Positions 1-9,645 of a DNA stretch of 10,212 nt are shown one piece after another. Where the stretch lies: contig NZ_FUWK01000059.1 of assembly GCF_900167395.1 (NCBI RefSeq), positions 1 to 10,212 on the forward strand, read 5' to 3'. The translations under genes were made by a program, and so were the position numbers. Origin of the DNA: Nitrosomonas europaea. GTDB taxonomy: Bacteria > Pseudomonadota > Gammaproteobacteria > Burkholderiales > Nitrosomonadaceae. Numbering within the stretch: the first letter of the stretch is position 1; every line of letters begins with the position of its first letter. The notes beneath the pieces were generated by a model. That model ran no database searches, was not told the origin of the DNA, and worked only from the letters and a program-made list of their open reading frames with translations.

Positions 1-1
1 A

Positions 2-406
2 TCGATTGTCATTACAGATGCTAACTATGACGTACCGGGACGTGCACTGCGTGTCACCATGGAAGTAACCAATAATGGCGACATACCTGTCACATTTGGT
101 GAGTTCACCACGGCAGGCATACGTTTCATCAACTCTACTGGCCGTAAATACTTGGATCCTCAGTATCCTCGTGAACTGATCGCTGTCGGTTTGAATTTCG
201 ACGATGAAAGCGCAATTCAACCTGGTCAGACCAAGGAACTGAAAATGGAAGCCAAAGATGCATTGTGGGAAATCCAACGTCTGATGGCGTTGCTGGGTGA
301 CCCGGAAAGCCGTTTTGGTGGATTATTGATGTCTTGGGATGCAGAAGGTAATCGCCATATCAACAGTATTGCTGGTCCGGTGATTCCTGTCTTCACCAAA
401 CTCTGA
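2..406 (+). CDS. amoB: Ammonia monooxygenase subunit B, C-terminal part (5' end lies outside the window)
   Basis: The frame is open from the window edge (codons phased from nt 2) to TGA 404-406. The translation [43 protein letters not shown]...[32 protein letters not shown] is colinear with the C-terminal cupredoxin domain of PmoB/AmoB. From memory, M. capsulatus PmoB reads YRVPGRAMRM..ITNHG..GEFYTA..RFL...DPDSRFAGLLFFFDATGNR..APLIPSF. The AMO assignment, rather than pMMO, rests on the downstream amoE-amoD-copCD synteny. Confidence 0.93.
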
Positions 407-441
407 TAAACAGTACTGAGTACTGAGTATCAGTTGAAAGA

Positions 442-487
442 TACCGGTACATCACTGTCGTAAGGCAGAGGTGTACCGGTTTTTATT
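442..487 (+). terminator. Rho-independent terminator downstream of amoB
   Basis: A perfect 9-bp stem pairs ACCGGTACA (443-451) with TGTACCGGT (472-480). An inner helix 455-459/464-468 closes a GTAA (GNRA-type) tetraloop at 460-463. A T-run follows directly (TTTTTATT, 480-487). It lies 36 nt after the amoB stop codon. Confidence 0.75.
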
Positions 488-569
488 ACACAGTCTTGGT
501 TTTGAACGAAGCATCAATTAGCCTGTCGAATTTAGTATTGCGGATACTGAATTGAAAGGGATTGTAAAA

Positions 570-1205
570 ATGAGAAGAGAGAGTTTGCTGAAAAAGCATG
601 AAGGTGTTGTAAAAAGTACTGGGGGGGGTGTCGTGTTGAAGCAATCCCTGTACTCGATTGTTACAGCATTTGTTTTCGTAATTCTGTGTTCCGCAAGTAC
701 AGTCTGGGGACATGGTCGTGTATCTCTGGAAGAAGATAACTGTGTGCGTCAGGTAGGCGAGAATATGGTGCACTTAAATACCTATCAGCCTCAATATGAT
801 CAGGCGGGGCATTATTGTACAGAGATTCCGGCGGCGGGAGATACTTACCTGGTGGTAGATCTGATTGATCCAGCCTTACGCAACATGCCAGTGAGCATGA
901 AAGTATTCAGGGGTGAAGAAAAGGGAGGGGAAGCGATTCTTCAGGTAAAAGCCGATTATCACCCTGATGGTGTCATCAATGGAATAGGTAAACTGGACAA
1001 GGGGTTATATTCGGTAATGGTGACCGCAGAAGGTGTTCCCCCACTGAATTATTATTACCAGCTTCGGGTTGAAATGGTTGATTATGGCAAGCTGGTACGT
1101 ACCTGGGCAGGTCCGGCAGTCGCAATACTGTTTTTGGGCTGGTTGATGTATAAACTGGTGCAATCTGGTCGATTGAGAAGCTGGTTCAAATCTCAGGATG
1201 ATTAA
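570..1205 (+). CDS. amoE: AmoE (orf4), a membrane-anchored periplasmic AmoD/PmoD-family putative copper protein
   Basis: The ORF ends at TAA 1203-1205. ATG 570 is preceded by AAGGG (555-559). The TTG 552 start used by the ORF track is less likely. In-frame GTG 633 or TTG 636, just after a G8 run (621-628), would give a more canonical signal peptide (KQSLYSIVTAFVFVILCSASTVWG|HG). There is a C-terminal TM helix (WAGPAVAILFLGWLMYKLV). The mature N-terminus is 25/59 identical, ungapped, to the next ORF. Being the first ORF after amoB, and a paralog of the second, fits orf4/amoE of betaproteobacterial ammonia oxidisers. Confidence 0.85.
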   Translation: MRRESLLKKHEGVVKSTGGGVVLKQSLYSIVTAFVFVILCSASTVWGHGRVSLEEDNCVRQVGENMVHLNTYQPQYDQAGHYCTEIPAAGDTYLVVDLIDPALRNMPVSMKVFRGEEKGGEAILQVKADYHPDGVINGIGKLDKGLYSVMVTAEGVPPLNYYYQLRVEMVDYGKLVRTWAGPAVAILFLGWLMYKLVQSGRLRSWFKSQDD

Positions 1206-1271
1206 ACTGGATCATCCTGCGTTAGCGATGTGATTCACAACAAGAAAATCAAGGAGAGGGAGGATGGTTAA

Positions 1272-1844
1272 ATGGTAAAAGGGTGGACAATGACAAGTAT
1301 CAAGTGGCTTGGAGGGGTACTGCTGGGAATGGTCTGTTCAATCCAGGTGCAAGCACATGGTGGGTTATCATTGGCGGAAGATATGTGTAAGCTGACCATT
1401 GGTCCTTATACCATGCACTTTACGGGTTATCAGCCTGAAAGCACACAGGAAAAAGAATTCTGTGAAGACATACCGAATATTGGCCGGACAATTGTAGCGC
1501 TGGACTACATAGATGAGGCGTTACGTACGATGACGACAGAAGTGCGGATTATTCGTGATACAGGAGCTGAACCGGGTTCAGAAGGAAATCTTGATGAGCT
1601 TACTGTTTTTCATTCACCACCAAAGGTATATATGAATGGATCGGTAACTTTTGAACACGATTTTCCTGCGGAAGGGAAGTTCGTGGGACTGGTGACGATC
1701 AGAGACAATGGTACCGAGCATATTTCCCGTTTTCCATTTGCTGTAGGCACTGGAGGTAAGCCTGATATGCTGTATATCCTCGGAGCATTAGCCCTTGCAG
1801 CAGGTGCCGGCATCTTCTTCTTCAAAAAGAAACAAAACCCTTGA
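1272..1844 (+). CDS. amoD: AmoD (orf5), a membrane-anchored periplasmic AmoD/PmoD-family putative copper protein
   Basis: ATG 1272 lies 7 nt after a strong SD (AAGGAGAGGGAGGA, 1251-1264). ATG 1290 (MTSIKWLGG..) is an alternative start. The signal peptide is ..MVCSIQVQA|HGG, and the C-terminal TM helix MLYILGALALAAGAGIFFF is followed by KKK. It shares this motif string with AmoE: HG-x2-SL-x-ED-x-C, H-x3-YQP, C-x-[ED]-IP-x2-G, D-x-ID-x-ALR-x-M. Confidence 0.87.
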   Translation: MVKGWTMTSIKWLGGVLLGMVCSIQVQAHGGLSLAEDMCKLTIGPYTMHFTGYQPESTQEKEFCEDIPNIGRTIVALDYIDEALRTMTTEVRIIRDTGAEPGSEGNLDELTVFHSPPKVYMNGSVTFEHDFPAEGKFVGLVTIRDNGTEHISRFPFAVGTGGKPDMLYILGALALAAGAGIFFFKKKQNP

Positions 1845-1937
1845 GGATAAAGCATCTCACACAATATTGCATAACACTATTTAAGTAAGTATCAATGTTC
1901 TTGTATATTTATTTTTAAATATTAGAAGGGTAATAAG

Positions 1938-2360
1938 ATGAAAAGAGAAAGTTTTGTTGAGTTGTTCATAGAAAAAATTGTAACAAAGGTGAAGATAAGC
2001 AGTTTTGTAATGGGATTAATTTCTTTAGTTTTATTGTCAAGTTCAAATGTAGTGTTTGCACATGCTGCTCTAACAAAAGCTGAGCCAGCACGTCGAGCAG
2101 TTCTTACTGCTTCCCCAAAACAAGTTAGGTTATGGTTTAACGAAGAAATTGAAGCCGACTATGCATCTTTGTCACTGCATGATGCAAATGGTAAGGCACT
2201 CACTGAAAAAAAACCTTTAGTTCATCCTGATGATGCTAAATCGATTTACCTTGAATTGCCCGAGCTGATTGGTGGTCAATATACGGTCAAGTTTCGTGTT
2301 TTGTCTGTAGACGGCCATGTAGTAGATTCAGAATATAAATTTACAGTTAAAAATAAGTAA
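1938..2360 (+). CDS. copC: CopC-family periplasmic copper-binding protein with the Cu(II) site only
   Basis: ATG 1938 lies 7 nt after AGAAGGG (1924-1930). The signal peptide ends ..SSSNVVFA|HAALTKAEP, so the mature protein starts with His (codon 2061-2063). A D-G-H motif sits near the C-terminus (2310-2318, ..RVLSVDGHVVD). The overall pattern H-x2-L..P....L.F......S.L.L.D..G......YTV.(F/W)RV.S.DGH is typical of CopC. The mature sequence contains no methionine, so the Met-rich Cu(I) site of classical CopC is absent. Confidence 0.9.
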   Translation: MKRESFVELFIEKIVTKVKISSFVMGLISLVLLSSSNVVFAHAALTKAEPARRAVLTASPKQVRLWFNEEIEADYASLSLHDANGKALTEKKPLVHPDDAKSIYLELPELIGGQYTVKFRVLSVDGHVVDSEYKFTVKNK

Positions 2361-2378
2361 CAAAATAAAAAATAAGTA

Positions 2379-4526
2379 ATGGAAATCGTTGCGATATTAG
2401 CTAGATGGTCACAGCTTGTTGCCAATCTAGTATTACTTGGAAGTTGTCTTTATCTAGCCATAGCAGGTACCAGGCGAGAGTTATTCGATAATGCGTGGGT
2501 CATACGTTTGGAGAAATTATTCCCTGTATTGACTGCTATAGTTTTAGTTGGGCTTATTGGAGTTCTGGCTACGACTACAGGTAAAGCAACCGGAATTGAG
2601 TCCAATACTTGGAAGCTTGATGCATGGATTGAGATTGTCAGGCATACCAATATGGGACATATGTGGGCATTACGTGCTATTTCTGCCCTATTTTTGATGG
2701 CTGTTTCAGTATTCATATACGTGAAACGTGAACGGGCCAGATGGCATTACGTTATGGGAGCTTGCATAGCATCCTTGCCCTTGGTAGCTTCGGCGATGGT
2801 GAGCCATGCGGGTGCAGATGAAAATTTCATGGTGTATGTGCCTATTTATGCAATTCATATCCTGATGGCCGGAGCATGGTTTGGTGCACTTCCGGCATTT
2901 CTATTAATCGTTTTCGATCGACACAATTGTGATGCTAAAGGCATACAGCTCGTATTGAACGTAGACAGCCTGAAAAGATTTTCGGTCATTGCGCTGCCCA
3001 TCATGGTTGCAATAGTACTAACTGGCCTGATTCTAACGGATCGGATGGTGGAAGAAGATTATCATGCATTGGTAGCTAGTACTTATGGTTGGGCTCTGGT
3101 TACGAAAATCGCTTTGTTGATAGCAATATTGTTTATAGCGTACCAGGCGCGTTCAAAGTGGTTGCCGTCATTTGAGCGTGTATGTGATTCTATAGACCGT
3201 TCCAGTCTGGATAAAGAAGAGAAAATTAATCAATCTTTCTTCTCTAAGTGGGTGCATAAAACTACTCAGGTTGAGAACTACGGTTGTGCGGAGGAAGGTG
3301 CCCCAGATTCTGGAGTAGCTAGATTGCGTAAATGGGTTCGAGTTGAATTTGTATTGGCGTTGCTTCTTGTACTATTTGCAACAATACTTTCCAACTCAGT
3401 GCCCGCCAAGCATGCAATGGTGGAAAATTGGCCATATCCATTCCGTTTTACTATTGATGGATCGATAGGTGCAGGAGCATGGAATGATCCAACAGTTCAA
3501 TTCTTCTTGGGGTTAGGAGTAGTTTTACTTGTTGCCGCATTTGGTCTATTTTGGTTGGGTAAAAAGAAGGATTGGAATTTTAGAAAACGTGCTTTGGTTA
3601 CAAGCGTATTAGTAGTTAGTGGTATCGCTGCGATTTTGCCACAATTTGCAGTTGTTGCTTATCCTGAGACGTATCGTAATACACCTGTTCCATTTGATGC
3701 TATTTCAATTTCGAATGGTTCGGTGCATTTTTCAGAATTTTGCACCAGTTGTCATGGTCCTCAAGGGAAAGGTAACGGTATATTAGCTAAAACTTTGTCA
3801 ATGCCACCTGCAGATTTGCTGACAGAACCGCATACCGCGAGACATACTGCCGGTGATTTTTTTCACTGGTTAGGGTATGGTATTGAAAATACAGGGATGC
3901 CTGGCTTTATAAATAGTTTGTCTGAAGAGGATCGATGGGATACGGTCAACTACATTCATGCAATGTCACGTGGCTACCAGGCGAGACTACTGGGTCCTGC
4001 AGTTATACCGGATAAACCTTCTATGGGTCCACCGGTTTTTCAGTTCACTGCTTATGATGGCACTACTGGCACACTCAAAGATTTTCGACAAACAGCAAAT
4101 GTATTGTTGGTATTTTTTAGCTGGCCAAATTCATTGGATAGATTAAAGGAGTTAAGCGAAAGCTATGAGAAGCTGAGAAGCCTAAAGACAGTTGTACTCG
4201 CCGTTCCTTTGGATGGGTATAGCGAGGCAGCGGTAGCTGGCTTTGCTGCTGATACCCCACTTGAAGTAGTAAGAGATGGATGGTTTGAAGTAAAAAACAG
4301 CTATATCCTTTACAGGCGTACTCTCAAATATCCCGATATCTTGGGTTCAGGTAATATTCCCGATCATATGGAGTTTTTAGTCGATCGTTTTGGATATTTG
4401 CGTGCCCGCTGGATACCATCCTTGGATCAGTCTGGCTGGAGTGATTTAAACTTGCTTACCAGTCAACTTTTGCAACTTAATCAGGAAAAGGAGATATTGC
4501 CACCACCGCGAGATCATGTACATTAA
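2379..4526 (+). CDS. copD: CopD-family inner-membrane copper transport protein fused to a class I c-type cytochrome domain and a C-terminal thioredoxin-fold domain without cysteines
   Basis: A single uninterrupted 715-codon ORF starts 18 nt after copC. Residues 1-440 contain about 10 hydrophobic helices with a CopD-like N-terminus (ILARWSQLVANLVLLGS..). A heme c motif C455-T-S-C-H459 lies at nt 3741-3755, with a GMPGF distal-Met motif (M507, nt 3897-3899) and LSEEDRWDTVNYI, as in class I cytochromes c. Residues about 551-715 follow the AhpC/TlpA/Sco-like beta-alpha-beta pattern (TLKDFRQTANVLLVFFSWPNSLDRLKEL...TVVLAVPLDG...MEFLVDRFGYLRARW). The redox motif position reads SWPNS (nt 4119-4133) and has no cysteine. 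No clear SD precedes ATG 2379, so translational coupling to copC is possible. Confidence 0.88.
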   Translation: MEIVAILARWSQLVANLVLLGSCLYLAIAGTRRELFDNAWVIRLEKLFPVLTAIVLVGLIGVLATTTGKATGIESNTWKLDAWIEIVRHTNMGHMWALRAISALFLMAVSVFIYVKRERARWHYVMGACIASLPLVASAMVSHAGADENFMVYVPIYAIHILMAGAWFGALPAFLLIVFDRHNCDAKGIQLVLNVDSLKRFSVIALPIMVAIVLTGLILTDRMVEEDYHALVASTYGWALVTKIALLIAILFIAYQARSKWLPSFERVCDSIDRSSLDKEEKINQSFFSKWVHKTTQVENYGCAEEGAPDSGVARLRKWVRVEFVLALLLVLFATILSNSVPAKHAMVENWPYPFRFTIDGSIGAGAWNDPTVQFFLGLGVVLLVAAFGLFWLGKKKDWNFRKRALVTSVLVVSGIAAILPQFAVVAYPETYRNTPVPFDAISISNGSVHFSEFCTSCHGPQGKGNGILAKTLSMPPADLLTEPHTARHTAGDFFHWLGYGIENTGMPGFINSLSEEDRWDTVNYIHAMSRGYQARLLGPAVIPDKPSMGPPVFQFTAYDGTTGTLKDFRQTANVLLVFFSWPNSLDRLKELSESYEKLRSLKTVVLAVPLDGYSEAAVAGFAADTPLEVVRDGWFEVKNSYILYRRTLKYPDILGSGNIPDHMEFLVDRFGYLRARWIPSLDQSGWSDLNLLTSQLLQLNQEKEILPPPRDHVH

Positions 4527-4641
4527 TTCTGTCCAAAGAAACTGAGAAGACAGCCTAAAGTAATCGTTAAGAGTAAGAAGTTTTATAATAAATTTATGAA
4601 GCTTGTTAAGTAGTTTTTAACCAGTGATAGGGAGAACAGTA

Positions 4642-5199
4642 ATGAAAAAATATCTGACGGGTGTGGTTCTTTTTGGATTGCTAACTTTATTTACAGGGTC
4701 GACTTGGGCACATTCAGATGAACAATTGGATGGGGTGGCTGCTCCACATGGCGGACAATTAAGAATGGCAGGTCCGTATCATTTGGAACTGGTTGCCAAG
4801 GATGGTGAATTACGTTTATATGTAACGGATCACATGGATCATGAGGTTCTTACTAAAGGTGGATCAGGTAAGGCAAATGTTTTTGATAAAGATGGGAAAA
4901 AGGTATCGGTAACATTGATACCGGTTTTTGCAAATTTCATGAAAGGGACGGGAGAGTTTACAATTACACCGGAAACCGTAGTTTCCGTATTTGTAGTATT
5001 GGATGGGGCAGAGACACAAGCTGCTCGTTTTACTCCGTTGAAGAAAGCTTCTGCTAAGGCTGAAGATGAAGAAGAGCACCACCATGGAGATGCTGATCAA
5101 GGTGAGCACCATCATCACGGAGATGTTGAACACGAACAACAACCTACTGATCAAAGTGATGCCGCAGAAAGTGAAGAAAATGAAGAGCATCATCACTAG
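4642..5199 (+). CDS. Secreted protein of unknown family with an acidic, histidine-rich C-terminal tail (putative periplasmic metal-binding protein)
   Basis: ATG 4642 lies 6 nt after AGGGAGA (4629-4635). The GTG 4624 start used by the ORF track is less likely. The signal peptide is MKKYLTGVVLFGLLTLFTGSTWA|HSDEQ. The core looks beta-rich (APHGGQLRMAGPYHLELVAKDGELRLYVTDH..). The tail at nt 5062-5196 reads EDEEEHHHGDADQGEHHHHGDVEHEQQPTDQSDAAESEENEEHHH and ends in HHH at the C-terminus. A terminator follows the gene. I cannot name the family from memory. Confidence 0.78.
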   Translation: MKKYLTGVVLFGLLTLFTGSTWAHSDEQLDGVAAPHGGQLRMAGPYHLELVAKDGELRLYVTDHMDHEVLTKGGSGKANVFDKDGKKVSVTLIPVFANFMKGTGEFTITPETVVSVFVVLDGAETQAARFTPLKKASAKAEDEEEHHHGDADQGEHHHHGDVEHEQQPTDQSDAAESEENEEHHH

Positions 5200-5259
5200 T
5201 ACTGATTCCTTGTAAGCCAATTTTACGTAAATCGTGTATATGGCTGAAAATAGGTGTAG

Positions 5260-5296
5260 AAAGGATAGTTTAGATGTTTTAGACTATCCTTTTTTA
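5260..5296 (+). terminator. Rho-independent terminator closing the amoED-copCD-His-rich gene string
   Basis: A perfect 10-bp stem pairs AAAGGATAGT (5260-5269) with ACTATCCTTT (5283-5292), with a 13-nt loop. It runs into TTTTTT (5290-5295). It lies 60 nt after the stop codon at 5197-5199. Confidence 0.8.
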
Positions 5297-5623
5297 TATG
5301 AGGGGATGAGTAGTCAGGTATCGGCTTGATTGAATTTTTGGCTCATAATCATCCATCTCGAACAATTTCGGGATTATTCCTGAGGTAAACGGTTCTGTAA
5401 GCCGGGGGTTTACGGAGTGAGTCGTTTACCAGTAACATTCTTGGGTTATAGAGTTTTCACAGCAACAGTCAGCGGTAACCAATCGAATCGTATTGTATCC
5501 ATACACCATCTCTGCCCCTCCACCAGGAAATTTCGGTAGCAATGAGCCTACTCTGTATAACTAAAGATGATACGACAATCAAAGTGTCGTCGTTAGACGT
5601 ATCTCATTAGCACGTTCGATTGT

Positions 5624-6172
5624 ATGAAATACTGGTTGTATACGAGTCTATTTCTTGCCCTGATATTTTCGTTTCGGAGTTACGCAAATTCAGACATATG
5701 GATTCTGATAGATACTCTGGAGCAACGACTTAGTGTTATGCGTGGAGACAAGGCGCAATTGGCTTTTAATAATATTGCGATTGGCCGATACGGTGCTAGT
5801 AGCTCGAGAATGAAAGGCGATAACCAGACTCCGCTCGGCTCATTTCAAATTAGCTGGATTAAGCAGCATCATCGCTACTATCGGTTTTTTGGAGTTGATT
5901 TTCCCAATCAGGAAGCGGCAGATCTGGCTTTGGCTGAAAAAAGAATTTCACGACAAGCCTGGTTGAGTATAACCAAAGCCATTGAATCTTCAAGGTTGCC
6001 TCCCCAAGATACGCCGCTTGGGGGCTATATAGGGATTCATGGTATTGGTCGAGGAGATCGTACAGTTCATGCACGTTTCAACTGGACTAATGGATGTGTA
6101 GCTCTGACAAATGCGCAAATTGATGAATTAAGTTCATGGATAAAAATAGGCACGAAAGTTGTAATACGATGA
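5624..6172 (+). CDS. L,D-transpeptidase family protein (YkuD/ErfK domain), secreted
   Basis: The signal peptide is MKYWLYTSLFLALIFSFRSYA|NSD. The catalytic-site pattern matches the YkuD fold: ..GGYIGIHGIG.....NWTNGCVALTNAQIDEL (His...Gly-Cys-[VI]-x-[LM]-x-N). No obvious SD precedes ATG 5624, so the start is less certain than the gene call. Confidence 0.85.
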   Translation: MKYWLYTSLFLALIFSFRSYANSDIWILIDTLEQRLSVMRGDKAQLAFNNIAIGRYGASSSRMKGDNQTPLGSFQISWIKQHHRYYRFFGVDFPNQEAADLALAEKRISRQAWLSITKAIESSRLPPQDTPLGGYIGIHGIGRGDRTVHARFNWTNGCVALTNAQIDELSSWIKIGTKVVIR

Positions 6173-6363
6173 TTCGTAATGACTAATTTTACTACATTAG
6201 GACATTGTCTTTTATATCATGCCTAACTTAATCAAGATTTATATGTTGGGTCAAGAAACTGTTGATGAGCAATACCTGAAAGGATGAGAAACAACCAGTC
6301 TTCATTGAGGTGAATTAACTTAAATAGCAGAGCAGGCTGACTAAGCATCAGGTGGTTTATACC

Positions 6364-6392
6364 TTGACATGTAAATCATAACACCATAAAAT
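6364..6392 (+). promoter_or_regulatory. Candidate sigma70 promoter of the str operon
   Basis: A consensus -35 TTGACA (6364-6369) is separated by exactly 17 nt from the -10 TAAAAT (6387-6392). It sits about 165 nt upstream of the rpsL ATG, in a 385-nt intergenic region. This is predicted from sequence only. Confidence 0.6.
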
Positions 6393-6557
6393 TTGCAGTC
6401 TTTTTAGCTGCGTATCTGTCAAATAGGCAGTGCTGTACTAAGGTACAAGAGCAATTGTAGTAGATAAATTACTGCGCTGAGGTTTGTGCCATAGTAGAGG
6501 CGAATAACAAGGGTTAGCTTAAGGAAATAATTAAACAGATGGGATATTAGGAGCAAA

Positions 6558-6935
6558 ATGCCGACGATCAGTCAATTAGTACGTAAGCCGCGTAAAGCAA
6601 AAAGAACGAAAAGCAAGGTGCCTGCTCTTGAGAGTTGCCCGCAGAAAAGAGGGGTATGTACGCGTGTTTATACTACGACTCCTAAGAAACCAAATTCTGC
6701 CCTCCGGAAAGTGGCTAGGGTCAGGTTAACAAACGGCTATGAGGTAAGTAGTTATATCGGTGGCGAAGGGCATAATTTGCAAGAGCACTCGGTTGTGTTG
6801 ATACGGGGTGGAAGGGTCAAGGATTTGCCGGGTGTTCGCTATCATACGGTTCGTGGTAGTTTGGATACAGCTGGTGTAAAAGATAGAAAACAAGCTCGCT
6901 CAAAATATGGGTCAAAGCGGCCGAAGAGCGCATAG
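6558..6935 (+). CDS. rpsL: 30S ribosomal protein S12
   Basis: The start [13 protein letters not shown].. and the motifs ..[13 protein letters not shown].. and ..[14 protein letters not shown].. are canonical S12. The SD TAGGAG (6548-6553) precedes the ATG. The protein is 125 aa. Confidence 0.98.
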
Positions 6936-6951
6936 CCACGGTCAGTATATG

Positions 6952-6980
6952 TGCGCAGCTTAGCGCTGCGCATTTTATAT
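6952..6980 (+). promoter_or_regulatory. GC-rich hairpin plus T-run in the rpsL-rpsG intercistronic spacer (candidate S7 operator or attenuator)
   Basis: An 8-bp stem pairs TGCGCAGC (6952-6959) with GCTGCGCA (6965-6972), with loop TTAGC, followed by TTTTATAT (6973-6980). It lies inside the 76-nt rpsL-rpsG spacer. The function is inferred by analogy with S7 autoregulation of the E. coli str operon. Confidence 0.4.
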
Positions 6981-7011
6981 CGTTTAAAAGAGAAATATAG
7001 AGATAAGTAAA

Positions 7012-7482
7012 ATGCCGAGACGAAGAGAAGTGCCGAAAAGAGAAATACTGCCAGATCCCAAATACCATAATATAGAGTTGGCGAAGTTTGTGAATGTGCT
7101 GATGACACGGGGAAAAAAGTCTGTCGCTGAGCAAATTATATATGGTGCTTTAAATCATTTGGAGAAAAAAACGGGAAAGGATCCTGTCGAGGTATTTACA
7201 CAGGCTTTGTCAAACATCAGACCAGTTGTTGAGGTTAAAAGCCGGCGTGTGGGTGGGGCAAACTATCAAGTGCCTGTGGAAGTTAGATCTATTAGGAGAA
7301 GTGCTTTGGCGATGCGTTGGTTGCGAGATGCTGCTCGTAAACGGAGCGAGAAGTCAATGGATTTAAGATTGGCGAGCGAATTGCTGGAAGCTTCGGAAAA
7401 TAGGGGGGCGGCAATCAAGAAGCGTGAAGAAGTGCATAGAATGGCTGAGTCTAATAAAGCATTCTCTCACTTTAGGTTTTGA
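7012..7482 (+). CDS. rpsG: 30S ribosomal protein S7
   Basis: The start [18 protein letters not shown].., the motif ..[20 protein letters not shown].. and the C-terminus ..AFSHFRF are canonical S7. The protein is 156 aa. Confidence 0.98.
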
Positions 7483-7554
7483 GGAAATTTTCGCATATGA
7501 GTGCATATGCGTGTAAATGAGTATCTCGACAGTAAAATAAACTAGGAAATAAAA

Positions 7555-9645
7555 GTGGCAAAGAAAACACCGTTAGAGCGATATCGTAATATAGGTATCA
7601 TGGCTCATATCGATGCAGGGAAAACGACAACCAGTGAGCGTATACTGTTTTATACGGGGGTTTCTCATAAGTTGGGAGAGGTGCATGACGGTGCTGCTAC
7701 TATGGATTGGATGGAGCAGGAGCAGGAACGGGGGATTACGATTACATCCGCTGCTACAACGTGCTTTTGGAGGGGGATGGCGGGAAATTATCCTGAGCAT
7801 AGAATCAATGTAATTGATACCCCGGGGCACGTAGACTTTACAATTGAAGTGGAACGCTCGTTGCGTGTGTTGGACGGAGCTTGTACGGTATTTTGTGCAG
7901 TTGGTGGCGTTCAGCCTCAAACGGAAACAGTTTGGCGTCAGGCTAATAAATACGGGGTCCCGAGACTTGCCTTTGTTAATAAGATGGATAGGTCGGGCGC
8001 TAATTTTATGCGTGTTCGTGAGCAAATGATTAGCAGGCTTAAGACAAATCCGGTTCCGATTCAGTTGCCAATCGGTGCTGAGGATGGATTTGCTGGAGTC
8101 ATTGATCTCGTAAAAATGAAGGCTATTTATTGGGATGATGCGAGTCAAGGTACGAAATTCGAGGAGCGTGAAATTCCTGCTTCAATGCAGGCTGATGCGG
8201 CCATCTGGCGAGAAAAAATGGTTGAGTCGGCTGCCGAAGCAAGTGAAGAGTTGATGAACAAATATCTGGAAACGGGTGATTTGTCTATAGAGGATATTAA
8301 ACAAGGGTTGCGCGTAAGAACAATAAATAATGAGATTGTCCCAATGCTTTGTGGGACCGCGTTCAAAAATAAAGGTGTTCAGGCGATGCTTGATGCGGTA
8401 CTTGATTATCTACCGTCGCCACTGGATATTCCGGCAATAAAAGGGACAAATGAAAATGGTGTTGAGGATGAGCGTGAGCCGAGTGAGGATAAGCCATTTT
8501 CTGCGTTGGCATTTAAGATTGCAACCGATCCGTATGTAGGGCAGTTAATTTTCTTTCGCGTGTATTCCGGAACGATTAAATCGGGAGACACGGTATTTAA
8601 TCCGGTTAAGGGGAAAAAAGAAAGAATTGGTAGATTGCTCCAGATGCATGCCAATCAGCGTGAAGAAATCAAGGAGGTTGGAACTGGGGATATTGCTGCT
8701 GCTGTGGGTTTGAAAGAGGTCACGACAGGAGATACTTTGTGTGATCTGGATCACATAATTACACTGGAGCGGATGGATTTCCCGGAACCGGTCATTCATG
8801 TGGCCGTTGAGCCAAAAACTAAGATTGATCAGGAAAAGATGGGGATTGCACTGAATCGCTTGGCACAGGAAGACCCATCTTTTAGAGTTAGAACAGATGA
8901 GGAATCAGGGCAGACGATCATTTCTGGGATGGGTGAACTTCATCTGGAAATCATTGTTGACCGGATGAAGCGAGAATTTGGAGTGGAAGCGAACGTAGGA
9001 GCTCCTCAGGTTGCATATCGTGAAGCAATAAGAAAGCAAGTTGAAATTGAAGGTAAGTTCGTTAAACAAAGTGGTGGTCGCGGCCAGTATGGTCATGTGT
9101 GGCTGCGGATGGAGCCTAACGAGGCGGGTAAGGGGTTCGAATTTCTTGATGAGATTAAAGGTGGTGTTGTTCCGCGAGAATATATTCCAGCCGTTGAAAA
9201 AGGATTGCAGGATTCATTGGCAAATGGTGTTCTTGCCGGATATCCAGTAGTAGATGTGAAAGTTGCTCTGTTTGATGGGTCATATCATGATGTCGATTCT
9301 AATGAGAATGCTTTTAAAATGGCTGCATCTATAGCATTTAAAGATGGTATGAGAAAAGCTAACCCTGTTTTGTTAGAGCCAATGATGGCAGTCGAAGTAG
9401 AGACACCATCCGATTTTATGGGTAATGTAGTGGGCGATTTATCTTCTCGCCGTGGAATAATTCAGGGAATGGATGATATTCCGGGATTCAAGGTAATTCG
9501 TGCAGAGGTGCCGTTAGCTGAAATGTTTGGGTATTCAACGATACTACGCTCTGCTACTCAGGGGAGAGCGACGTATTCAATGGAATTCAAGCATTATTCC
9601 GAAGCACCAAAGAATGTGGCAGAGGCAATCATTAATAAGAAATAA
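7555..9645 (+). CDS. fusA: Translation elongation factor G
   Basis: The gene uses GTG start 7555, 7 nt after AGGAA (7543-7547). The N-terminus [26 protein letters not shown] is typical of EF-G. G-domain motifs are [16 protein letters not shown] and NKMD. The 696-aa protein is colinear with bacterial EF-G throughout. Confidence 0.98.

Follow-up and report, generated by a model that had tools for sequence, protein, structure and literature searches.

A CopD permease carrying a cytochrome c and a cysteine-less thioredoxin-fold domain in the amo operon of Nitrosomonas europaea

Why should a copper permease of an ammonia oxidiser carry a heme of its own? The question is raised by a stretch of 10,212 nucleotides (nt) from Nitrosomonas europaea (contig NZ_FUWK01000059.1 of assembly GCF_900167395.1, forward strand; hereafter the window), in which the copD gene of an amo operon runs on from a permease into a class I cytochrome c and then into a thioredoxin-fold domain that has lost its redox cysteines. 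We report that this three-domain architecture is real, ancient and widespread. As a tentative explanation, to which we assign a probability of roughly 0.4, we propose a redox-coupled hand-off of copper at the mouth of the permease. It should be said at the outset that we claim no discovery of the fusion as such, since the subfamily is already in print and in the databases; the value of the analysis therefore lies in the mechanistic hypothesis and in the residue map.

One reading frame from permease to C-terminal tail

The copD open reading frame (ORF) encodes 715 amino acids (aa) without an internal stop, and the original prediction, made from this sequence alone, was right that neither a stop nor a frameshift divides it. 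Isolates and metagenomes supplied 470 distinct sequences with the same fusion, uninterrupted in all of them, and an independent contig (L001) is 100% identical. Both observations speak against an assembly or sequencing artefact that joined separate genes, an explanation to which we give practically no weight. The features of the gene are as follows.

2379-4526, + strand: copD ORF, 715 aa, comprising the CopD core, two extra transmembrane (TM) helices, cytochrome c, Cys-less peroxiredoxin-like domain and HxH tail
2379-3398, + strand: CopD core, TM1-TM8, aa 1-340 (alignment to E. coli YebZ)
2805-2807 and 2856-2858, + strand: His143 and His160, flanking the periplasmic TM4-TM5 loop
3150-3335, + strand: hydrophilic insert between TM7 and TM8, aa 258-319, with Cys269 and Cys303
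3399-3491, + strand: periplasmic loop after TM8 with the motif P342-A-K-H345...W351-P-x-x-F-R356, start of the extension (YebZ stops here)
3492-3659, + strand: extra TM9 and TM10, aa 372-427, bringing the chain back to the periplasm (hydrophobicity, AlphaFold model)
3684-3983, + strand: class I mono-heme cytochrome c domain, aa ~436-535 (Pfam, PDB profile, Foldseek)
3741-3755, + strand: CTSCH heme-attachment motif, aa 455-459
3831-3833 and 3843-3845, + strand: His485 and His489, an HxxxH pair within EPHTARHTAGD
3894-3908, + strand: GMPGF, aa 506-510, with the codon of axial Met507 at 3897-3899
4011-4493, + strand: Cys-less peroxiredoxin-like domain, aa ~545-705 (predicted local distance difference test, pLDDT, 86-98)
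4119-4133, + strand: SWPNS, aa 581-585, with the codon of Ser585 at 4131-4133
4365-4367, + strand: His663
4500-4523, + strand: C-terminal tail PPPRDHVH, ending in His-x-His-COOH

The permease core was recognised by Pfam CopD (PF05425) over aa 198-336 with 56 bits against a cut-off of 32.1, and missed by the NCBIfam copper_CopD equivalog NF033808 (98.3 against a cut-off of 195). E. coli YebZ and Pseudomonas CopD share the same eight-TM core, both functional histidines and a copC/YobA partner gene on the 5' side. His143 is aligned with YebZ His135 and His160 with YebZ His154, the two residues needed for copper uptake (PMC11923076), and they are kept in 468 and 470 of the 470 members, respectively. 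For residue counts, these 470 distinct full-length members were aligned, and 118 representatives remained at < 70% identity. In the CopD part of the latter, His143 is conserved at 98%, His160 and Trp167 at 100%, Lys243 and Trp351 at 99%, Pro342 at 98% and His345 at 97%. Whereas YebZ stops after TM8, the window protein adds a periplasmic loop, two TM helices and about 290 periplasmic residues.

Ten hydrophobic segments were detected and the AlphaFold model contains ten long helices, in agreement with the number initially estimated. Lysine and arginine residues are distributed unevenly between the two sides of the membrane, 28 of them in loops 1-2, 3-4, 5-6, 7-8 and 9-10 against 7 in the N-terminus and loops 2-3, 4-5, 6-7 and 8-9; the TM9-TM10 loop (KKKDWNFRKR) is strongly positive. 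This bias, taken with ten helices, indicates that both termini lie outside, and the cytochrome c and peroxiredoxin-like domains are consequently predicted on the periplasmic side, as had been suggested for both. Covalent attachment of heme c requires a periplasmic location.

The protein has cysteines only at positions 23, 129, 184, 269, 303, 455 and 458, with none after the heme motif. Two of them, Cys269 and Cys303, belong to the insert between TM7 and TM8, to which attention had been drawn earlier. The insert exists, and it is confined to near relatives; neither cysteine is conserved, the segment is modelled as disordered (pLDDT < 50) and its 11 Lys and Arg residues assign it to the cytoplasmic side by the positive-inside rule. 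We regard it as a lineage-specific, predicted cytoplasmic element of no evident significance.

Conserved residues of the two C-terminal domains

By motif, profile and modelled fold, aa ~436-535 form a complete class I cytochrome c domain, as originally supposed. Pfam Cytochrom_C (44.5 against a cut-off of 21.3) and Cytochrome_CBB3 (35.7 against 27) were both matched at aa 445-529, and a profile search of the PDB returned the c552 entries 9vr0 and 7o9u with an E-value of 2e-15. Foldseek superimposed the model of the domain on 9vr0, the Thioalkalivibrio cytochrome c552, with a template modelling score (TM-score) of 0.81, a root mean square deviation of 1.8 A and 37% identity. The initial full-length AlphaFold model had given this domain a pLDDT of 30-50; with a diverse alignment, aa 425-715 were modelled as one rigid two-domain unit with a pLDDT of 89 and a predicted TM-score (pTM) of 0.89. 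The heme ligation is kept almost without exception among the representatives (Cys455 and Cys458 99%, His459 100%, Met507 99%), and the positions of CTSCH, of GMPGF with its methionine and of SWPNS had all been given correctly.

The heme domain also contains the HxxxH pair, His485 and His489, each present in 107 of the 118 representatives (91%). Three Nitrosomonas sequences with 62-69% identity to the window protein (P0012, P0014 and P0020) carry Tyr instead of His485 (TDLYT...); His489 is replaced as well in one of the group, and in one the tail is degraded to SYAH. Judged by their sequences, these proteins may have a copper site that has changed by natural variation. No consistent pattern of co-variation between the loss of His485/His489 and the loss of the HxH tail was found. 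In total, eight periplasmic histidines are conserved at 91-100% in the 118 representatives.

The assignment of the C-terminal domain to the thioredoxin fold needs to be stated at two levels. For the window sequence alone it is weak, AhpC-TSA (PF00578) scoring 15.4-17.5 bits under a cut-off of 26, so that the pattern proposed at first is only weakly borne out by the single sequence. At the level of the family it is solid by profile and structural model: AhpC-TSA was matched by 21 of 26 diverse members (best E-value 6.6e-10), and the profile of the domain, searched against the PDB, retrieved Bcp1 (2e-8) and AhpE (2e-7), then ResA and TlpA. Foldseek gave a probability of 1.0 for Bcp, ResA, AhpE, DsbE, BsSco and TlpA, at TM-scores of 0.6-0.8 (up to 0.79 for TlpA/ResA/DsbE). 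The domain thus shares its fold and a recognisable profile with Bcp/AhpE and with TlpA/ResA/Sco; it differs from all of them in the absence of the defining cysteines, in what occupies the catalytic positions and in the addition of a terminal HxH tail. SCO1-SenC (PF02630) was matched by none of the 26 members.

What replaced the catalytic residues could be read from the hidden Markov model alignment to Bcp1, in which "swPesqerl" is paired with "DTPGSTREA" and "PdhleflvD" with "PARITFVID". Where peroxiredoxins have their Thr, the window protein has Trp582, a position at which many members have Leu; Ser585 stands in place of the peroxidatic Cys and His663 in place of the catalytic Arg. The earlier claim that the redox cysteine is lost was hence borne out, with Ser585 at the peroxidatic position in alignment to Bcp1 and AhpE. 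Likeness to Bcp, AhpE, ResA and TlpA might suggest that the domain is an active thiol peroxidase or a thiol-disulfide oxidoreductase of the peroxiredoxin, TlpA/ResA or Sco type, but 283 of 294 long members have no cysteine in the domain and none of the 294 has CxxC or CxxxC. In the window domain, neither the CxxxC of Sco1/SenC nor the CxxC of TlpA/ResA/DsbE is present, and Ser and His stand where peroxidatic Cys and catalytic Arg would be. The pocket of peroxiredoxin type was kept and refitted (Trp/Ser/His), and accordingly we consider a thiol enzyme extremely improbable. It should be added that some records name the domain "peroxiredoxin" or "redoxin" in spite of the loss of every catalytic residue.

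Among the 118 representatives, the refitted domain retains Arg588 (99%), Glu665 (99%), Asp669 (100%), Arg675 (100%), Arg677 (98%), His663 (95%) and Ser585 (78%). His663 directly precedes the strand MEFLVDRFGY, and may correspond to the distal His copper ligand that Sco proteins carry just ahead of the beta-hairpin. The chain ends with the HxH tail, found in about 290 of the 294 long members, as a rule after Asp or Glu and a spacer rich in Pro; of the representatives, 114 (97%) have His713 and 113 (96%) His715. Model confidence in the tail is low, on which account it is probably flexible.

Family, known relatives and gene neighbourhoods

All of the best 120 homologues, at 49-94% identity, have the three-domain architecture; they belong to Nitrosomonas, Nitrosospira/Nitrosovibrio and one Nitrospiraceae. 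Beyond these, 302 clusters were retrieved at E<=1e-10 when 1.84 billion representative proteins were searched with a C-terminal domain profile; in most of them the proteins are 630-700 aa long and have the domain at their C-terminal end. Named members also come from metagenome-assembled genomes (MAGs) of Methylomirabilota and Gammaproteobacteria. Stand-alone proteins consisting of the C-terminal domain were considered and rejected: every such hit, about 200 aa long, starts with the Met of GMPGF, and is therefore taken as a truncated or miscalled gene. When the C-terminal domain alone was used in a word-indexed search for homologues, nothing but fragments of this family came back.

Certain taxonomic labels should be read with care. 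The contig L001 mentioned above (CAUJDU010000030.1, 4250 nt, 100% identical to the copD region of the window) is part of a MAG labelled Actinomycetota bacterium KLAP143; in view of its amoE, amoD, copC and copD content and its Nitrosomonas homologues, it was almost certainly binned wrongly. The same suspicion falls on L042 ("Clostridia") and L058 ("Chloroflexota").

The subfamily was described in Commun Biol in 2025, where about 4% of CopD sequences, CopD of Methylosinus trichosporium OB3b included, were reported to carry cytochrome and Sco1/thioredoxin-like domains (PMC11923076). The order is the same, CopD followed by cytochrome c (cbb3-type) and the Sco1/thioredoxin-like domain, and CopD of OB3b is likewise encoded with copC beside an operon for a copper membrane monooxygenase. 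That paper gives the architecture a single sentence, without analysis of residues or function. The window protein differs from the published subfamily in being of Nitrosomonas type with the lineage-specific cytoplasmic insert, and, in our searches, the sequence of its C-terminal domain came nearer to the Bcp/AhpE peroxiredoxins than it did to Sco1. The architecture is also present in source annotations of the databases. Full-text literature searches found no paper with a residue analysis or a mechanism for three-domain CopD, and the map of conserved histidines, of the Trp/Ser/His pocket and of the HxH tail is new here.

Two further relatives share parts of the protein. Cytochrome c/FTR1 iron permeases, such as WP_151073256.1 of Cupriavidus oxalaticus, have a homologous class I cytochrome c (28% identity, E-value 3e-15) and also tether a heme to the transporter of a redox-active metal; they differ in the FTR1 permease, in the N-terminal position of the cytochrome and in having no thioredoxin fold and no His485/His489. 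Such proteins occur on a Cupriavidus oxalaticus plasmid (L168, 2635-4560) and on plasmids of Xanthomonas and Variovorax. In Burkholderia arboris (L081, NZ_CP101525.1, ~4620-5837), a protein of about 405 aa adjoining ABC-transporter genes consists of two TM helices, cytochrome c and a degenerate C-terminal domain (26% identity), with no CopD part; this suggests that the block of two TM helices, heme and thioredoxin fold is a mobile module.

In the window, copD forms part of the extended betaproteobacterial amo operon (PMC6189053), with the following genes around it.

59-406, + strand: 3' end of amoB (Pfam Monooxygenase_B, 1.2e-43)
552-1205, + strand: amoE/orf4-like gene
1272-1844, + strand: amoD/orf5-like gene
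1938-2360, + strand: copC, periplasmic Cu(II)-binding partner (Pfam CopC, PF04234, 2.1e-22)
4624-5199, + strand: His-rich ORF of 191 aa, candidate periplasmic metal-binding partner

The CopC has a predicted cleavage site VFA|HAAL, which leaves His as the mature N-terminus, a VDGH motif and neither Met nor Cys. From these features it is of the Cu(II)-only type, in accordance with the initial claim that it has a Cu(II) site only.

On the 3' side, the His-rich ORF encodes a signal peptide and an invariant His at the mature N-terminus (WA|H-T/S-D/E-E), followed by the invariant residues H42-G-G44-Q45, H53-x-E55 and D69-H70 and an acidic, His-rich tail. A homologue lies 3' of copD in 41 loci, the distant L084 among them. 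Profile searches found no Pfam, NCBIfam or PDB relative, and the matches to PDB "Pizza" entries were dismissed as an artefact of summed short motifs. Its sequence makes it a possible periplasmic copper protein, so far undescribed, that belongs to amo operons. Beyond it follow a YkuD L,D-transpeptidase gene and then rpsL, rpsG and fusA (window 5624-9645), an arrangement with the amo-cop cluster that recurs in 3 of 87 related loci only (L002, L004 and L005). A scan of window positions 1-6600 for promoters and terminators gave nothing above the shuffled expectation.

Elsewhere, copD of this type was observed in two recurring contexts, operons of copper membrane monooxygenases and copC-copD-cusF clusters. 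The first is represented by the order amoCAB-amoE-amoD-copC-copD in Nitrosomonadaceae and in one comammox Nitrospira, and by L084, L085, L086 and L087, in which members only 29-38% identical to the window protein stand beside copC and a full AmoC/AMO/Monooxygenase_B set. L086 also encodes a sigma-54 activator of MimR-like type and a Toluene_X porin; these two genes suggest that the copper monooxygenases concerned oxidise hydrocarbons. The second context prevails in soil loci, here the best 80 loci of a scan seeded with the distant members (L088-L167). There, copC is directly 5' of copD in 46 of 80, compared with 52 of 87 related loci, and a CusF_Ec gene is directly 3' in 46 of 80, confirmed by Pfam in two loci. 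The cusF-like gene of L101 carries the motif IDHENIPGLMEAMTMAF, which matches the His/Met/Met Cu(I) site of CusF. A fuller soil cluster reads (cytochrome c + Iron_transport/P19-like) - copC - copD - cusF-like - rhodanese, e.g. L101 at 6139-10435 and L145 at 7992-10785, although the rhodanese gene and the 5' cytochrome c/P19-like gene are found in some soil loci only.

That the subfamily might be specific to copper monooxygenase operons, as 4 of 6 distant loci had suggested, was ruled out by the soil clade, in which a monooxygenase is present in 0 of the 80 best loci within 8 kb. For this reason we see in the three-domain CopD a general copper module that has been repeatedly recruited to copper monooxygenase operons.

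The same contrast bears on the possibility that the tethered cytochrome c feeds electrons to AMO/pMMO, with copper handling secondary. The physiological reductant of these enzymes is debated, and linkage to amoCAB/pmoCAB-type genes extends across distant lineages. Against this, the same protein stands at many loci with CopC and CusF and no monooxygenase, conservation extends to the transport histidines and to the additional His sites, and the abundance of CopD in ammonia-oxidising bacteria (AOB) is very low in comparison with AMO (PMC5960693), which together make a role as electron donor highly improbable.

Nitrosomonas genomes often have an orphan second paralogue at 47-53% identity (L022-L025, L037-L046, L077 and similar loci; match at ~6001-8019), and neither copC nor amo genes lie within 6 kb of it. 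A DUF326 gene, of the Csp copper-storage family, lies about 1.7 kb 5' of the orphan copD in N. ureae Nm13 (L077), and the 197-aa ORF directly 3' of it proved to be unrelated to the His-rich ORF of the window.

A proposed hand-off of copper at the permease mouth

With partners and residues in place, the proposed redox-coupled hand-off can be set out as follows. CopC would bring Cu(II) to sites formed by histidines at the periplasmic surface; candidate residues are His485/His489, His345, the His663 that occupies the old peroxiredoxin pocket, and His713/His715 of the tail. Heme c, supplied with electrons from the pool of periplasmic c-type cytochromes, would reduce the bound Cu(II) to Cu(I). The latter would pass the gate of His143 and His160 into the cell or else be given to a periplasmic Cu(I) carrier, candidates being CusF in the soil clusters, the His-rich ORF product in the window and PCuAC in methanotroph operons. 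The Cys-less fold would serve as a Sco-like module for holding or docking copper and not as a redox enzyme, and copper would in the end be loaded into AMO and copper monooxygenases related to it. A Cu(II)-only CopC encoded 5' and a Cu(I)-type CusF 3' fit a conversion between the two states at the heme; this gene order of the soil clade and the conserved clusters of His are circumstantial support. In its most specific form, namely a bacterial periplasmic heme c-dependent cupric reductase on a copper permease, fed by the respiratory pool of c-type cytochromes, with a histidine relay of HxxxH, former peroxiredoxin pocket and swinging HxH-COOH tail that passes Cu(I) to import or to monooxygenase loading, the proposal must be called doubtful.

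The direction from Cu(II) to Cu(I) is favoured because homologues of CopD act in acquisition and the host operons serve copper-demanding enzymes, and because there are precedents in the chaperone fusion of YcnJ and in eukaryotic heme reductases, which reduce Cu(II) at the cell surface before import (PMC7558416). The Fre/Steap/Dcytb enzymes of eukaryotes and CcoG, as yet the sole specific cupric reductase described from bacteria (PMC7558416), resemble the window protein only in the proposed coupling of Cu(II) reduction to delivery or import; CcoG works with Fe-S clusters and the eukaryotic enzymes with b hemes in the membrane, and neither is homologous to it.

A number of observations weigh against the proposed hand-off. 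His/Met c-type cytochromes usually have a high potential, and reduction of Cu(II) may for that reason be uphill unless Cu(I) is strongly stabilised; the reverse reaction, oxidation of Cu(I), is equally conceivable. Tyr replaces His485 and/or His489 in some Nitrosomonas sequences, and the orphan paralogue has no adjacent copC. In models of YcnJ and YebZ, CopD receives Cu(II) from CopC without an outside reductase (PMC13344008), and CopD was barely detected in AOB proteomes (PMC5960693). Moreover, CopD of M. trichosporium OB3b is said to have the three-domain architecture (PMC11923076), and from a mutant of this strain copCD was reported not to be critical for copper uptake or the copper switch (Gu 2017, as summarised in PMC7558416).

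The possible reversal leads to an explanation in which the protein is a heme-dependent cuprous oxidase serving copper tolerance, converting Cu(I), for instance on CusF, to the less toxic Cu(II) on CopC, and so standing in for the multicopper oxidases PcoA and CueO. The order copC-copD-cusF reads equally well in this direction, and high-potential His/Met hemes are good oxidants. CopC and CopD were, besides, first described in copper-resistance operons (PMC7558416). However, the genes are located in operons of amo/pmo type in organisms with a high demand for copper, homologues of CopD act as importers, and no multicopper oxidase or efflux pump was seen among the neighbours checked, all of which renders tolerance quite improbable.

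Another explanation is a periplasmic metallochaperone or insertase, in which the heme has no role in import and CopD anchors and gates: the Cys-less fold and the His tail would hold copper and load AMO/pMMO or other envelope cuproenzymes directly, while the heme would only keep the oxidation state of copper right or sense the redox state. B. subtilis YcnJ (CopC-CopD-YtkA) and Corynebacterium CtiP (CopD-CtaG) likewise join the permease to an extracytoplasmic chaperone for a membrane cuproenzyme, differing in that the fused modules are YtkA and CtaG and that no heme or other redox cofactor is present. In YcnJ the C-terminal extracytoplasmic YtkA domain helps to build CuA, whereas the CopC and CopD domains act in import (PMC13344008). 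The tight linkage of distant members to copper monooxygenase operons, the likeness of the fold to Sco, TlpA and ResA, the conserved His663 and the unimpaired bulk copper uptake of the copCD mutant, as reported through PMC7558416, point in the same direction. The soil clade, with no monooxygenase within 8 kb, does not fit such a function, the full conservation of the transport histidines argues that transport was retained, and a heme motif in ~100% of members suggests a central and not an accessory heme. On balance we hold a chaperone of this kind to be unlikely, yet the least so of the alternatives.

The idea of a reductase is thus a reasonable one, unpublished as far as our searches show, and its residues and partners are now more specific. 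A permease with its own periplasmic heme and near-invariant histidines offers a compact and expressible object for testing redox-coupled copper uptake, and if the heme c cupric reductase reading is true, the three-domain CopD would be the functional counterpart of the eukaryotic pair of Fre/Steap and Ctr1.

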